This document shows, piece after piece, positions 8,882 to 16,085 of a DNA stretch of 64,000 bases (position 1 is its first letter; every line of letters begins with the position of its first letter). Made by a program: the position numbers and the translations under genes. The notes under the pieces were generated by a model. The model was given only the letters and a program-made list of their open reading frames with translations, did not search any database and was not told where the DNA came from. This DNA is from an uncultured Dehalococcoidales bacterium (GTDB taxonomy: Bacteria; Chloroflexota; Dehalococcoidia; GIF9; UBA5629): positions 5,541 to 69,540 of the forward strand of contig CAZSED010000012.1 in assembly GCA_964605885.1 (NCBI GenBank), read 5' to 3'.

Positions 8882-9352
8882 ATGTCTAGGCGCGCCAAAT
8901 TTATCAAAAAGACGATCAACCCGGACCCCAAATTCGGGAGCCCGGTTATTGCCAGGTTTACTAATAAAATAATGTATATGGGCAAAAAATCCACCGCCCA
9001 GGGCATTATCTACGATGCATTCGAGCGCATAAACAAACAGATGAAGACCGACCCCCTTGCGGTTTTTGAGCAGGCACTTAAAAATGCCACGCCTATGCTG
9101 CAGGTAAAGTCGAGGCGCGTTGGCGGCGCCACATACCAGGTACCTATTGAGGTTTCCCCGGAGAGGGGCGAGTTCCTGGCAATGCGCTGGATTATTTCAT
9201 TTGCCAGGGAACGCAGCGGACGGTCGATGGCTGAAAAGCTGGCTGCAGAGTTGATGGATGCGGCGCAGGGACAGGGCAACTCGATCAAGAAAAAACAGGA
9301 TACGCACAAGATGGCCGAGGCCAATAAGGCATTTGCGCATTACCGATGGTAA
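8882..9352 (+). CDS. rpsG: 30S ribosomal protein S7
   Basis: [12 protein letters not shown]...[15 protein letters not shown]. Confidence 0.99.
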
Positions 9353-9402
9353 CCACAGGAATAAGGGAACCCAGGCCAAAGTCGGGCCGGGGTGTTAATA
9401 CG

Positions 9403-11469
9403 GTGACAAGATCATTCCCGCTGGACAAAGTCCGGAATATAGGCATCATCGCTCACATCGATGCCGGTAAGACCACAACCACCGAGCGGATTCTCTTTTA
9501 CACTGGCCGGACATATAAGGTCGGTGAAGTCCACGACGGCACAGCCGTCATGGACTGGATGGTGCAGGAACGGGAGCGCGGCATAACCATAACCTCAGCC
9601 GCCACAACCTGCCACTGGAGAGAACACCGCATAAATATTATTGATACGCCGGGCCATGTTGATTTCACCGCCGAGGTGGAGCGCAGCCTGCGCGTGCTGG
9701 ACGGCGGCGTGGTGGTGCTGGACGCCGTTTCGGGTGTGGAAGCGCAGTCAGAGACCGTATGGCGCCAGGCCGATAAATACAGCGTGCCCAGGATTTGCTT
9801 TATTAATAAGATGGACAGGGTGGGCGCTGATTTTATGCACACGGTGGAGATGATCGAAGACAGGTTAAAGGCCAAGACACTGATAACCCAGCTTCAAATA
9901 GGCAAGGAAACAGAGTTTAAGGGTGTGGTGGACCTGGTTTCGAATAAGGCATGGCTCTTCCCCGACGAGGTGACAGAAAAACCGGAAGAGATAGAGATGC
10001 CGGCGGAGCTGAAAGAGGAAGCGTCGCAGGCCAGGCACAAGATGATAGAGAAGCTGGCGGAAAATGACGACCAGCTCATGCTGAAATATGTTGATAACCA
10101 TGATATTGGAGAAGAGGATATCAAAGCTGCCATCAGAAGGTTGACAGTGGCCAGCAGGATTGTCCCGATTGTCTGCGGCAGCGCGCTGCGCAACAAAGGC
10201 ATACAGCTTGTGCTTGACGCCGTTGTCGACTATCTGCCCTCGCCGGCGGATAAACCGCCGCTGAAGGCGGTGACGACCTCCGACGGCTCCACTGTTGTCC
10301 GCCCGCCCAGCGATGATGCTCCGTTCTCGGCTCTGGCCTTTAAGGTCGTCTCAGACCCGTTTGTGGGCCGGCTGGTTTACTTCCGTGTATATTCAGGCAG
10401 TATCAAGGTCGGGGCGCAGGTCTATAACGCCAGCAGGGACACCAAGGAGAGGCTGGGCAGGCTGCTGCTAATGCACGCCAACCGTCGCGAGGAGATAGAG
10501 GAAGTTGATGCCGGCAGCATCGCCGCCACCCTTGGATTAAAGAATACCTTTACCGGAGACACACTGTGTGATATGGCCCAGCCCATATTGCTTGAGGATA
10601 TTAAGTTCCCCGAGCCCGTCATCTCCATGGCGGTTGAGCCCAAGAGCAAGGCCGACCAGGACAAGCTGAGCGATGCGCTGGGACGGCTGTCCGAGGAGGA
10701 CCCGACCTTTAAAGTACGCTCCAACGAGGAGACCGGGCAGACCATCATCTCCGGCATGGGCGAGCTGCATCTGGAAGTGCTGATAGACCGCATGCTGAGG
10801 GAGTTCGGCGTGCAGGTCAGGGTGGGCAAACCGCAGGTAGCCTACAAGGAGACCGTCACCGCTAGCGTTGAAGCGGAAGGACGTTTCGTCAGGCAGACTG
10901 GTGGTCACGGGCAGTACGGCGACTGCTGGCTGAGAGTTGAGCCGGGCGAACGCAACAGCGGCTTTAAGTTCTTTAATGAGGTGCGCGGCGGCGATATATC
11001 CAGGCAGTACATCCCGGCCATCGAGGCCGGCGTGCGCGAGGCCCTGGACAGCGGCGGGCTGAGCGGCTACCCCCTGGTGGATATAAAGGTTACTGTATTT
11101 GACGGCAGCGAACATGAAGTGGACTCATCGGAAATGGCCTTCAAGATGGCCGGTTCCATTGCCCTCAAGGAAGGTGTGGCCAGGGCCAAGCCGGTGATTC
11201 TCGAGCCGATAATGAAGCTTGAGGTGGTTACGCCTGCCTCGTTCATGGGCGATGTAATCGGTGATATTAATGCCAGGCGAGGACATATTGAGGGGATTGA
11301 AACGCACGGCGAGACGTGTGTTATTCATTGCTTTGTGCCCCTGGCTGAGTCCTTCGGCTATGCCACGGCCTTGAGGTCGCTTACCCAGGGCAGGGCGACC
11401 TACTCCATGGAGTTCCATCAGTACAGCGAGGTCCCGGCCAGCATACTGGAGCAAATGTTAGCTAGATAA
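9403..11469 (+). CDS. fusA: Elongation factor G
   Basis: [27 protein letters not shown]. Start moved from the track's 9346 (overlaps rpsG) to GTG 9403, which follows a GGGGTG SD. Confidence 0.98.
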
Positions 11470-11479
11470 AGGTGTGTAG

Positions 11480-11788
11480 ATGACCAAGCAGAAGATAAGG
11501 ATCAAGCTCAGGGGATACGATCACAGGCTGGTCGACCAGTCGGCCGGACAGATCGTTGAGACTGCCATCAAATCGGGCGCTGAGGTCATCGGGCCTGTGC
11601 CTTTGCCCACCAGGATAGAGAAGTTTTGCGTCATCCGCTCTCCACATATCGATAAGGACTCACGCGAGCAGTTCGAGATACGCACACACAAGAGGTTGAT
11701 CGATATAGTGGGGCCTACCAGCAAGACCATCGATGCCCTTACTCAACTTCAACTGCCGTCGGGCGTGGAAATCGATATAAGGTTATAG
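11480..11788 (+). CDS. rpsJ: 30S ribosomal protein S10
   Basis: [11 protein letters not shown]...GPVPLPT...[16 protein letters not shown]. Confidence 0.99.
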
Positions 11789-11798
11789 GAATTAGAGA

Positions 11799-12407
11799 AT
11801 GTCAGGCATACTGGCCAGAAAAATAGGTATGACACAGCTGTACAGGGAGAACCTGGAAATAGCCGTAACGGCTGTTGAGGCAGGGCCCTGCTGCGTCGTC
11901 CAGGTAAAGACCGTTGAGAAAGATAAGTACAATGCCGTTCAGATCGGATTTGGCGCCGCCAAGAAGCTCAACAAGCCTCTGAAAGGCCACGTGAAGTCCA
12001 ACGGCGACTTCAGGCACCTGCGCGAGCTGAGGGTGGACGATATAAAGGATTACCAGGTGGGACAGAAGATCAACGCCGATATTTTTAAAGCCGGCGACAT
12101 CGTACATGTCGAAGGGATATCCAAGGGAAAGGGCTTTGCCGGCGGTGTCAAGCGCTACCATTTCCACGGCGGCCCCAAGACGCACGGCCAGTCGGACAGG
12201 CATCGCGCCCCTGGTTCGGTAGGTTCCACCACGACTCCCGGCCGCGTGTTTAAAGGATTGCGCATGGCGGGCCACATGGGCGCCCGCAAGGTCACGGCCC
12301 GCAACCTCGAGGTGGTCGAGGTGGACGCGGCTAAGAATATTTTGCTTTTGAAGGGAGCGGTGCCGGGCGCCAAGGGCGGAATTTTACTTATAGAGAAGGC
12401 CTCATAG
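11799..12407 (+). CDS. rplC: 50S ribosomal protein L3
   Basis: KIGMTQ...SKGKGFAGGVKRY...RAPGSVG. Confidence 0.99.
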   Translation: MSGILARKIGMTQLYRENLEIAVTAVEAGPCCVVQVKTVEKDKYNAVQIGFGAAKKLNKPLKGHVKSNGDFRHLRELRVDDIKDYQVGQKINADIFKAGDIVHVEGISKGKGFAGGVKRYHFHGGPKTHGQSDRHRAPGSVGSTTTPGRVFKGLRMAGHMGARKVTARNLEVVEVDAAKNILLLKGAVPGAKGGILLIEKAS

Positions 12408-12418
12408 AGGATATTCAA

Positions 12419-13075
12419 GTGGAACTCGATTTATATAATTCAGAAGGAAAGAAGACCGGAAAGATCAAGGTCAGCGACCATGTTTTCGGTCAGGCCCTGA
12501 ATGAGCCGGTGGTGCACCAGGCGCTGCTCAGGCAGCTGGCCAACGGCCGGCAGGGGAATGCCGACACGCAGACCCGCTCGGACGTAAAGCGCAGCACCAA
12601 GAAATTGTATGCGCAGAAGCATACCGGCAGGGCCAGGCGCGGCAGCGCCACGTCACCCCTGCTTAAAGGAGGCGGCGTGGTATTCGGCCCACACCCCCGT
12701 TCATACAGGCAGGACATGCCCAAGAAAATGCGCAGACTGGCCTTACGCTGCGTTATTTCAGGCAAGGCTTCAGATGACGAGATAAGAGTTTTGGACAAGC
12801 TGGAGCTGGAGGAGCCGAAGACCAGGCTGTTGATCGAAATGCTTGACGCCCTGGAGATCACAGATACGGCCCTGATTGGCGTTTCGGCGCCCAATGATTA
12901 TATTACCCAGGCCGGAGCCAATGTGCCCGGAATAAAGACCACCATGGTTTCCATGCTGAATGTTGCCGACATGCTTTCACATAAAATGCTGCTGTTGGAC
13001 GTGGACGCTGTCAGGCATATGGAAAAGCTGTGGGACAAGAAAGAGGAAAAACGTATCAGGGGGAAAGCGGAGTAA
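12419..13075 (+). CDS. rplD: 50S ribosomal protein L4
   Basis: QKHTGRARRGS...GGGVVFGPHPRSY; GTG start. Confidence 0.98.
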   Translation: MELDLYNSEGKKTGKIKVSDHVFGQALNEPVVHQALLRQLANGRQGNADTQTRSDVKRSTKKLYAQKHTGRARRGSATSPLLKGGGVVFGPHPRSYRQDMPKKMRRLALRCVISGKASDDEIRVLDKLELEEPKTRLLIEMLDALEITDTALIGVSAPNDYITQAGANVPGIKTTMVSMLNVADMLSHKMLLLDVDAVRHMEKLWDKKEEKRIRGKAE

Positions 13076-13099
13076 AGCTCCACGGAGTTTGTTCATAGC

Positions 13100-13384
13100 A
13101 TGAATATATATGAAATAGTGCACAGGCCTCTGGTAACTGAGAAGAGCACCCGCCTCTCAGAGAGCAATAAGTATGCCTTTGAGGTCAACAGGAGGGCGAC
13201 CAAGCAGCAGGTCAAAGAGGCAATTGAGCTGGCCTTCAAAGTCGGCGTGGTCAGCGTTAATGTAGTCAAGGTGCCCGCCGAGACAAAAAGGGTTGGCAAA
13301 AGAAATGTGACCAGCCCGCACTGGAAGAAAGCAATAGTAACGCTCAAAGAAGGTGATAAAATACAGTTCTTTGAGGGTGTTTAG
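13100..13384 (+). CDS. rplW: 50S ribosomal protein L23
   Basis: PLVTEKS...ATKQQVKEAIE...WKKAIVTL. Confidence 0.98.
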   Translation: MNIYEIVHRPLVTEKSTRLSESNKYAFEVNRRATKQQVKEAIELAFKVGVVSVNVVKVPAETKRVGKRNVTSPHWKKAIVTLKEGDKIQFFEGV

Positions 13385-13401
13385 GATAGCAGGAGTAAGA
13401 A

Positions 13402-13497
13402 TTGGGTTCTGTTATTAAGAAACGAAAAAAGAAGATGGCGAAGCATAAGCATCGTAAGCTTCTAAGAAAGAACCGATGGCAAAGGCGCCATCCTTAA
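13402..13497 (+). CDS. Small basic protein, bS22 / mS38 (AURKAIP1/COX24, DUF1713) family, 31 aa
   Basis: Not in the ORF track. AGGAGT SD (13391-13396), TTG start, [31 protein letters not shown]. Closely resembles mycobacterial bS22 ([25 protein letters not shown]...). Confidence 0.9.
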   Translation: [31 protein letters not shown]

Positions 13498-13516
13498 TAG
13501 TTAGGAGTAGTTAGAT

Positions 13517-14347
13517 TTGGCTTTGAAGGTATTTCGCCCCACGTCGCCCGGGCGCCGGAGAATGGTTAAGATCACGTTTGATGATATAACCAAGAAGGAG
13601 CCCGAGAAGTCACTGCTGGTGCCACAGCCCAGGAAAGCTGGACGTAACAGCAGGGGTGTGATCACGACCCGTCACAGGGGCGGCGGTGCAAAACGCAGGA
13701 CGCGCATAATAGATTTCAAGCGTGATAAGCTGGGCGTGCCCGGCAAGGTTGCTGCCGTAGAGTACGACCCCGGCCGTTCAGCCCGCATTGCCTTGATATT
13801 TTATGCCGACGGCGAAAAGCGTTATATGCTGTGCCCGCTGGGGCTGGGCGTGGGCGATACAGTGCTGGCCGGCGAAGGCGCAGAGATCAAGCCGGGCAAT
13901 AACCTGCCGCTTTCGGGCATTCCTGCCGGCACCATGATACATAACCTGGAGTTCGAGCCCAACAAGGGCGGCCAGATTGTGAGGAGCGCCGGGACCGCAG
14001 CCCAGTTGCTGGGCAGGGAAGACAAATACTCGACGGTGAGACTGCCTTCGGGTGAGGTCCGCCGTTTTATGAATGAATGCAGGGCTACTATCGGCCAGGT
14101 GGGGAACGTTGACCACCAGAATATCAAGTCGGGCAAGGCAGGTCGAACGCGTTTGCTCGGACGGCGTCCCAAGGTCAGGGGCTCGGCTATGACCCCGCGC
14201 GATCACCCCCACGGTGGTGGCGAGGGCAGGGCGCCGCGCGGCATGGCCCCCAAGACGCCCAGAGGCAAGCCGGCGCTTGGACGTAAAACCCGTGTCCGCA
14301 AGCCCTCAGATAGATTGATAGTAAGGCGCCGCAAGGCGGAGAAATAA
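13517..14347 (+). CDS. rplB: 50S ribosomal protein L2
   Basis: RHRGGG...[12 protein letters not shown]...DHPHGGGEG; TTG start with AGGAGT SD. Confidence 0.99.
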
Positions 14348-14362
14348 AGAGGTAAATTAGAC

Positions 14363-14653
14363 ATGTCACGATCAGCGAGAAAGGGCCCGTACTGTCATCC
14401 CAAGCTGTTGAAAAAGATTGAAGCCCTGAATAAAAAGGGCGAGAAACAGGTTATCAAAACCTGGGCACGCTCCTCTACGGTTATGCCTGAGATGATCGGC
14501 CATACCATAGGGGTGCATGACGGCAGACGGCACGTGCCTATTTTTATCACTGAGAACATGGTAGGACATAAGCTGGGTGAGTTTGCAATGACCAGGACGT
14601 TCCGCGGCCATGTGAGCAAAGCGGCAGCAGCACCGGCGCCGGTCAAGAAGTAA
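14363..14653 (+). CDS. rpsS: 30S ribosomal protein S19
   Basis: IKTWARSS...[15 protein letters not shown]. Confidence 0.99.
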
Positions 14654-14665
14654 GCAGGTTAAGAT

Positions 14666-15004
14666 ATGAGAGTCGCAGCAACAGCAAAGAATATAGGCAT
14701 ACCGCCCCGCAAGATGAAGCTGGTGGTGGATATGGTGCGCGGCAAGAAAGTGGAAGACGCGCTCAATATCCTTAAATTTACACCGACGCCGGCGGCCAAG
14801 GCGGTAGCCAAGGTGATCAAATCGGCTTCAGCCAACGCCGAGAATAACTTCCAACTGGACCCAGCCGAATTAAAGGTCGTTTACATCGTTGCTGACGAGG
14901 GCCGGACATTAAAAAGGTACAGGCCGCAGTCCAGGGGACGATTCAGCCCCATTTTGAAGCGCGCTACGCATATCAAGGTTTTAGTCTCCGAGGAGGAACA
15001 ATAA
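14666..15004 (+). CDS. rplV: 50S ribosomal protein L22
   Basis: PRKMKLVVDMVRGK...SASANAENN...LKRYRPQSRGR. Confidence 0.98.
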   Translation: MRVAATAKNIGIPPRKMKLVVDMVRGKKVEDALNILKFTPTPAAKAVAKVIKSASANAENNFQLDPAELKVVYIVADEGRTLKRYRPQSRGRFSPILKRATHIKVLVSEEEQ

Positions 15005-15676
15005 TTGGGACATAAAGTACATCCCTACGGGTTCAGGATCGGCGTCATCCGCGGCTGGAAGGCCAAGTGGTATGACGAAAAGCACTACCTGGAAGCCCTG
15101 CATGATGATCTCAAGCTGAGGGCTACTATCAAAGGCAAGCTGCGCGAGGGAGCTGTAGCGCGCGTTGAGATAGACCGGCAGGGTAATGATATTTTAGTGA
15201 CCATTTTTACTGCACGTCCGGGCATCGTAATCGGGCGCGGCGGTCAGAGGGCCGAGGAGCTGAGGTCCGAGCTGGAGAGGGTCTGCGGAAAGAAGGTCAA
15301 GCTGTCCATCAAAGAGGTGGAACAGCCTGAGATAGAGGCAGCCCTGGTAGCTCGCAACATCGCCGATTCGCTGGAGAGGCGCGTGGCCTTCAGGCGTGCC
15401 ATGAAGCAGGCTGCCTTCAAGACCAGGCAGGCCGGGGCCAAGGGAATCAAGATCAGCTGTGCCGGCAGGCTGGGCGGCGCTGAAATTGCACGGCGCGAGA
15501 CCATACACGAAGGCCAGCTGCCCCTGCATACGCTGAGCGCTGACATAGATTATGGGTTTGCCGAGGCTGCCACTACCATGGGCAACATCGGCGTTAAAGT
15601 ATGGATATATAAAGGCCGTATCATCCCTGAAGTAAGGAGAGAAAGTGTTACAACCGAAACGGGTGAAGTATCGTAA
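15005..15676 (+). CDS. rpsC: 30S ribosomal protein S3
   Basis: [13 protein letters not shown]...[11 protein letters not shown]...[10 protein letters not shown]. Confidence 0.99.
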
Positions 15677-16085
15677 GTGCCATCGCGGCCATTTACGTGG
15701 CAAGGCACAATCGGGCAGCACTATAGAATTCGGCGATTTCGGCATGCAGGCCGCAGAGGCGCACTGGCTGACGTCCAGGCAGATCGAGGCTGCACGCCGC
15801 GTTATTGTGCGTTACCTGCGCCGCGGCGGCCAGGTATGGATCCGCGTCTTCCCGGACAAGTCGGTCACCAAGAAGCCGGCTGAAACCCGCATGGGAAGCG
15901 GCAAGGGTGCCGTTGACCACTGGGTGGCCATGGTGAAGCCCGGCAGGATGCTTTTCGAGATAGGCGGCATTAAAGAAGGAATGGCTAAAGAGGCCTTGAC
16001 ACTGGCGGCTTATAAACTGCCGATCAAAACCAGGTTCGTGGCCCGTGAAACCATAAAACAAGAGGTAAAAGGTGAAGCTCACTGA
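15645..16085 (+). CDS. rplP: 50S ribosomal protein L16
   Basis: [11 protein letters not shown]...RQIEAAR...ETRMGSGKG. Confidence 0.99.

Follow-up and report, generated by a model that had tools for sequence, protein, structure and literature searches.

To our knowledge, bS22 came to light in bacteria solely through cryo-EM of ribosomes from mycobacteria, Bacteroidota and Borrelia. In Mycobacterium smegmatis, Flavobacterium johnsoniae and Borrelia burgdorferi, the protein is reported to bind between h44 and h45 and to contact the 50S subunit (PMC7797042, PMC10618245). The homologues are further described as inserting near h27, in a position resembling those of mS38 and eL41 (PMC7797042, PMC10618245, PMC10081302). 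The actinobacterial genes named are MSMEG_0945 in M. smegmatis and Rv0550B in M. tuberculosis (PMC10081302). According to the same report, bS22 of M. smegmatis is dispensable, and its deletion alters the aminoglycoside pocket of h44 (PMC10081302); the presence of the gene is therefore no proof of a stoichiometric or essential role.

Here we describe a bS22 gene of Chloroflexota that lies inside the S10 operon, between rplW (encoding uL23) and rplB (encoding uL2). The gene was found in a stretch of DNA of 64,000 nt, referred to throughout as the window. We compared this locus with those of related genomes, with stand-alone bS22 genes elsewhere in the phylum and with the ribosomal proteins to which bS22 has been likened.

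A bS22 gene in the S10 operon

The S10 operon of the window and the features around the rplW–rplB junction are as follows.

9346–11469: fusA, preceding the S10 operon (NCBIfam)
11480–16085, plus strand: S10 operon, comprising rpsJ, rplC, rplD, rplW, bS22, rplB, rpsS, rplV, rpsC and rplP (an NCBIfam equivalog match above cut-off for each gene; NF047430 for bS22)
13100–13384, plus strand: rplW, 50S ribosomal protein uL23, 94 aa (NF004363, 111.8 bits, cut-off 81)
13391–13396, plus strand: Shine–Dalgarno-like AGGAGT before bS22, 5 nt upstream of the TTG at 13402 (from the sequence)
13402–13497, plus strand: bS22 gene, with a TTG start, 31 codons and a TAA stop, intact
13503–13508, plus strand: Shine–Dalgarno-like AGGAGT before rplB, 8 nt upstream of the rplB TTG (from the sequence)
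13517–14347, plus strand: rplB, 50S ribosomal protein uL2, TTG start, 276 aa (TIGR01171, 396.4 bits, cut-off 174.5)

The sequence and the list of open reading frames place the end of rplW at 13384 and the TTG start of rplB at 13517, which leaves a gap of 132 nt. The bS22 gene lies within this gap on the operon strand, separated from rplW by 17 nt and from rplB by 19 nt. The original prediction, made from the letters of the window, had reported the 132-nt gap, an AGGAGT Shine–Dalgarno site, a TTG start, a 31-aa ORF and a second AGGAGT before rplB, and all of these lie at the coordinates claimed. Lysine and arginine account for 15 of the 31 residues of the product (9 K and 6 R, along with 3 H), and its size and basicity fit the family norm of about 30–33 residues and a highly basic composition.

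The product matches the NCBIfam equivalog model NF047430 (ribo_bS22) with 67.1 bits (cut-off 34; E = 1e-18), residues 1–30 aligning with positions 1–30 of the 31 in the profile. A search with the Pfam model PF08213 (COX24_C, formerly DUF1713), which had been proposed as a check on the gene, likewise gave a match above the gathering cut-off (39.6 bits against 23, E = 4.9e-10). When compared by phmmer with PDB chains, the protein matched bS22 of Cutibacterium and mycobacterial ribosomes, namely 8crx_X (E = 1.9e-7), 9e16_x (E = 3.3e-7), the 5o5j/5o61 group (E = 3.4e-7) and 6dzi_j (E = 2.1e-6), in ungapped alignments of 28–30 residues (residues 1–29/30 of the product) with 60–70% identity; mS38 chains in the PDB gave weak matches (E = 0.2–1). 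A genomic search of the window's own assembly (2.15 Mb, 98% complete) returned a single NF047430 match, at 62.1 bits, and among 14 control genomes the model matched Corynebacterium only. The bS22/mS38-like gene predicted between rplW and rplB is thus borne out by family models, by chains from solved ribosomes and by the conservation described below. We conclude that 13402–13497 genuinely encodes bS22 and adds a member from Chloroflexota to a family already known.

The gene had also been described as hidden, which holds only in part. The exact protein is already present in NCBI nr, and its 90% cluster includes two proteins annotated as 'AURKAIP1/COX24 domain-containing protein [Dehalococcoidia bacterium]'. 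All eight members of that cluster come from NCBI sources only, however, so other pipelines may miss the gene. The bS22 sequence of a further locus (L069) had no entry in the protein cluster collection. In these genomes, the gene deserves the name bS22. Among the papers listed, our literature search found no description of bS22 in the S10 operon, or of this arrangement in Chloroflexota or Dehalococcoidia. The lineage-specific operon position therefore appears to be unreported in papers, yet the gene itself is already called in public annotation.

No promoter-like or terminator-like site was found on the plus strand of 13385–13516 in a consensus scan, which is weak evidence, and Rfam gave no match at E values up to 1 in positions 11000–15000 of the window. 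The predicted RNA fold of 13375–13535 (161 nt) has a z-score of −2.16, with 3 of 200 shuffles folding equally well, a weak signal. A 7-bp hairpin, GATGGCAAAGGCGCCATC on the plus strand, lies at window positions 13475–13492, in the 3'-terminal part of the bS22 coding sequence; it also forms in the predicted RNA fold and was returned by the consensus scan as a minus-strand terminator-like site. Elsewhere in the operon, rpsC has a TTG start (15005), like rplB. The spacer from fusA (EF-G) to rpsJ is 10 nt, with no tuf between them (window 9346–11788).

The embedded gene is conserved and under purifying selection

We sampled 41 genomes from the order to which the window belongs, representing five family codes, and all of them have a bS22 match over the cut-off. 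The order uL23–bS22–uL2 was found in each of the 41 (neighbourhoods checked: 30, then G031 and G033, G034, and 8 more), and the longer arrangement uL4–uL23–bS22–uL2–uS19 in 30 of 30 loci of the order. In one genome of the window's family, G012 (L318, G012:C4), the bS22 frame breaks after about residue 24. Because the uL2 alignment in this locus is also broken, we think that this is probably no pseudogene and that the break stems from assembly indels.

We pooled 140 embedded loci, which correspond to 103 distinct coding sequences; some genomes entered the pool by two routes, and related genomes are not independent. The ORF is 31 aa long in 133 of the 140 loci and 30 aa long in the other 7, and starts with TTG in 106, ATG in 22, GTG in 11 and ATT in 1. 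A purine motif resembling a Shine–Dalgarno site is present upstream of bS22 in 135 of 140 loci and upstream of rplB in 136 of 140, with median spacers of 17 nt between uL23 and bS22 and of 20 nt between bS22 and uL2. Mean column entropy across the pool is 0.47 at first, 0.31 at second and 1.20 at third codon positions, and a crude count with no multiple-hit correction gave pN of 0.086 versus pS of 1.03 (ratio 0.08). Residues G2, K6, K19, R25 and W26 are invariant in all 99 distinct 31-aa products. The embedded bS22 is protein-coding and is under strong purifying selection. Where the original prediction had allowed that the ORF might prove disrupted in relatives, the frame is instead intact in 140 loci, with G012 the only break.

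TTG also prevails as the start of rplB, in 91 of the 140 embedded loci. In families f9, f78, f80 and f100, which belong to other orders, the embedded bS22 starts with ATG at the loci checked.

Occurrence within the phylum

In a sample of the phylum (n = 301 genomes), 63 genomes, G209 included, had a match at E = 0.001 or better, and 55 were over the cut-off. Nine of the 62 matches examined (the 63 minus G209) are embedded in the S10 operon, namely eight from the window's order and G151; at the other 53, uL23 and uL2 are both absent within 2.5 kb. The neighbours of the stand-alone genes are unrelated metabolic genes, for example acyl-CoA dehydrogenase and LemA, thiolase and redoxin, HIT, UbiA, or FAA hydrolase and a PLP enzyme. 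A sample of the class (n = 201 genomes) contained bS22 matches in 61, of which 43 lie elsewhere in the genome and 18 are embedded, the latter comprising 11 from the window's order, 3 from f78, 2 from f80 and 1 each from f9 and f100.

No bS22 was detected in the other 140 of the 201 class-sample genomes. In family f7 of the phylum sample, it was undetected in nine near-complete genomes of 1.4–1.9 Mb, seven of them single-contig. Since f7 and many other Dehalococcoidia are without a detectable bS22, the ribosomes of this class can work without the protein. Of 60 Dehalococcoidia genomes with no inserted gene, 47 have a rplW–rplB gap of at most 40 nt. Within the genomes sampled, the uL23–bS22–uL2 arrangement occurs in the window's order and in four further Dehalococcoidia families. 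The expectation of this arrangement in Chloroflexota thus named the right lineage, but in the genomes sampled it is limited to part of the class Dehalococcoidia.

We also scanned one genome per GTDB species for the pattern of bS22 codons followed 236–266 nt later by codons for the uL2 motif RHxGGG, which gave at least 115 loci. Among the matches listed, 104 are clear cases of uL23–bS22–uL2, 2 more have a broken uL2 alignment, and 9 are chance matches without the arrangement. For L087–L166, that is, 80 of the at least 115 matches listed, 79 titles are those of Dehalococcoidia, Dehalococcoidales, Chloroflexota or 'Chloroflexia' MAGs. One short contig of 1.9 kb (L121, CAYWTX010000327.1) is titled uncultured Planctomycetaceae, and its uL23, bS22 and uL2 are 72%, 97% and 89% identical, respectively, to those of the window; it is probably a Dehalococcoidia contig mis-binned into a Planctomycetaceae MAG.

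The stand-alone genes show some recurrent and some singular settings. At five loci, L217, L227, L234 (f106), L226 (f114) and L239 (f110), bS22 lies directly upstream of a GAPDH gene; the other flank is occupied by an HGD-D family gene in four of the five and by a metallo-beta-lactamase-fold gene in L227. Genome G503 carries two bS22 copies on two contigs (L217, L218). At L240 (G436, f118), a stand-alone bS22-like N-terminus, of which 26 residues match the model, continues into an open frame of 112 aa; the gene may be fused to another or may have lost its stop codon, or the assembly may be in error here.

Evolutionary history of the junction

Trees of four proteins (uL4, uL23, uL2 and uS19), built with FastTree and IQ-TREE, resolve deep nodes poorly. 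In the IQ-TREE quick tree, the window's order together with f78 and f80 forms one clade in which all members are embedded (SH-aLRT 92), and FastTree unites the window's order with f78 (SH-like 0.85). Families f9 and f100 fall outside the main embedded clade, and the free tree therefore needs at least three changes of state. Placing all 28 embedded rows in one clade was not rejected by the AU test (lnL difference 7.5, p = 0.448), the group having been defined by the trait after the first tree. These results are compatible with one capture that was followed by moves or losses, and there may also have been repeated capture into the rplW–rplB junction.

Two genomes of family f17 (L280 in G278 and L312 in G293) have a rplW–rplB gap of 83–98 nt and no bS22 match in either genome. 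In both, a K/R-rich stretch in the gap enters the rplB start in another frame; that of L280 reads MGSQVKRRVKKRSKNAAKGI, and that of L312 resembles it and is without a start codon. Both stretches may be what is left of an embedded bS22 that has decayed. In four further f17 genomes, the gap measures 5–11 nt, or 83–84 nt without a K/R-rich ORF.

We offer one fuller history tentatively, leaning somewhat against it as a whole: bS22 may have been captured once into the rplW–rplB junction, by the forebear of a large group of Dehalococcoidia, and may then have become indispensable as a ribosomal protein produced in concert with its operon neighbours, unlike the dispensable stand-alone gene of actinobacteria, with neighbouring lineages keeping the gene elsewhere, lacking it or carrying K/R-rich decayed remnants at this junction. 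If true, this would provide a natural series of gain, fixation and loss of a ribosomal protein within one class.

Discussion

bS22 is a small-subunit protein, the counterpart in bacteria of mitochondrial mS38/Cox24 and, in position, the analogue of eL41. We are highly confident in reading the ORF as the genome's single bS22 gene, moved between rplW and rplB in the ancestor of a Dehalococcoidia clade, co-transcribed with the S10 operon, provided with its own Shine–Dalgarno site and, by homology, encoding a ribosome-bound protein. The family membership of the gene, its conservation, the purifying selection on it, its operon position and its phylogenetic distribution are all direct observations of this study. 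In the course of events that we propose, bS22 would have reached the rplW–rplB junction in that ancestor. It would most likely be carried on the S10 operon mRNA, translated from its own Shine–Dalgarno site and its (mostly TTG) start codon, and thus made alongside ten other ribosomal proteins. From the layout of the operon we infer co-transcription together with independent translation, and stoichiometric co-expression would be a deduction from operon position. Once made, the basic helical peptide would be incorporated into the ribosome, where, by analogy with the resolved homologues, it would occupy a 16S rRNA pocket of h27/h44/h45 near the decoding centre and touch the 50S subunit. Dehalococcoidia bS22 would, on the same analogy, fill this pocket at full occupancy.

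A 31-codon ORF that stops 19 nt short of rplB (with a median of 20 nt across the 140 loci) could also be a short leader or upstream ORF that regulates rplB translation or couples to it, its peptide being no component of the ribosome. The prevalence of TTG starts (106 of 140) and the slightly better folding of the 161-nt region than of its shuffles (z = −2.16) would suit such an element. It is the peptide itself, however, that is under strong purifying selection and that is 60–70% identical to bS22 chains resolved in ribosomes; the same protein is encoded by stand-alone genes, far from rplB, in other Chloroflexota, and rplB retains its own Shine–Dalgarno-like motif in 136 of the 140 loci. We therefore judge a leader function very improbable. 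Still less credible is a non-coding spacer in which the frame is open by chance or is what remains of a decaying gene, an idea suggested by the very short ORF, its non-ATG start and the possible decayed remnants in f17. Against it stand the HMM E value of 1e-18, an intact frame in 140 related loci with variation biased to third positions, and the fact that only G012 is broken, in an assembly that breaks the uL2 alignment too. A chance frame or remnant is refuted by the conservation data from the 140 loci.

How constantly the protein is used is a different matter. In place of a constitutive, stoichiometric subunit, bS22 could be a facultative accessory that joins the ribosome under particular conditions, such as stress or antibiotic exposure. 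This would accord with the M. smegmatis protein, which is reported to be non-essential and to modulate aminoglycoside sensitivity (PMC10081302), and with the patchy occurrence of bS22 in the class (a match in 61 of 201 genomes); a weak TTG start could moreover lower the yield of bS22 relative to its neighbours. The gene is nevertheless present in single copy inside the core S10 operon, where no separate promoter or terminator is predicted, and all 41 genomes examined in the window's order have kept it. The TTG start is shared by rplB and rpsC of the same operon. On balance, we consider an accessory role unlikely, and we favour bS22 as a ribosomal protein produced with the rest of the S10 operon.

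These results extend the picture of bS22 in that Chloroflexota carry the protein. One Dehalococcoidia clade has placed bS22 in the most conserved ribosomal operon, and sister lineages do without it; comparing them could help to ask what the function of bS22 is and at what point the protein turns into a constant component of the ribosome. The results also indicate that the rplW–rplB junction can accept new genes. Nothing is overturned, as the family is known and the gene is already publicly called.

Comparison with described bS22 and related proteins

The closest described proteins are the actinobacterial bS22 of M. smegmatis, M. tuberculosis and Cutibacterium acnes (PDB 5o5j/5o61, 8crx), which belong to the same NCBIfam equivalog and contain the same Pfam domain as the protein of the window. 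Residues 1–29/30 align without gaps, the N-terminus MGSVIKKR is common to both, and the proteins are similarly basic, with 31 residues in the window versus 33. The protein of the window also has Lys16, the residue through which M. smegmatis bS22 is reported to contact the h44 pocket (PMC10081302). The genomic setting differs: uL23 and uL2 are not nearby in five actinobacterial loci among the matches of the codon-pattern scan (L088, L116, L117, L168 and L191), whereas the gene of the window lies inside the S10 operon. TTG starts predominate in the window's clade, unlike in actinobacterial bS22, and the Chloroflexota protein is known from sequence alone.

The protein of the window also resembles bS22 of Bacteroidota (Fjoh_1533 of F. 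johnsoniae, and Porphyromonas gingivalis) and of B. burgdorferi (bb0822), which are described as tiny, basic, helical proteins of the h44/h45 pocket (PMC7797042, PMC10618245). The Borrelia gene is reported to have been previously unannotated and to use a non-canonical GUG start (PMC7797042, PMC10618245). In sequence, the Bacteroidota and Borrelia proteins are more divergent than the actinobacterial ones. A wider resemblance links the window's bS22 to mS38/Cox24/AURKAIP1, with which it has the PF08213 domain in common; mS38 and eL41 are both described at an analogous position at the subunit interface (PMC10618245). Both are nuclear-encoded, but mS38 is much longer than bS22 and has the domain at its C-terminus, whereas eL41 is shorter than bS22 and unbent.

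The junction itself has a parallel within our own data. In family f112, at L294 (G408) and L311 (G486), a rplW–rplB gap of 424–448 nt is filled by an ORF of about 140 aa that is unrelated to bS22. This insert occupies the slot that in the window is taken by a ribosomal protein gene, one that is strongly conserved and has become fixed throughout an order.
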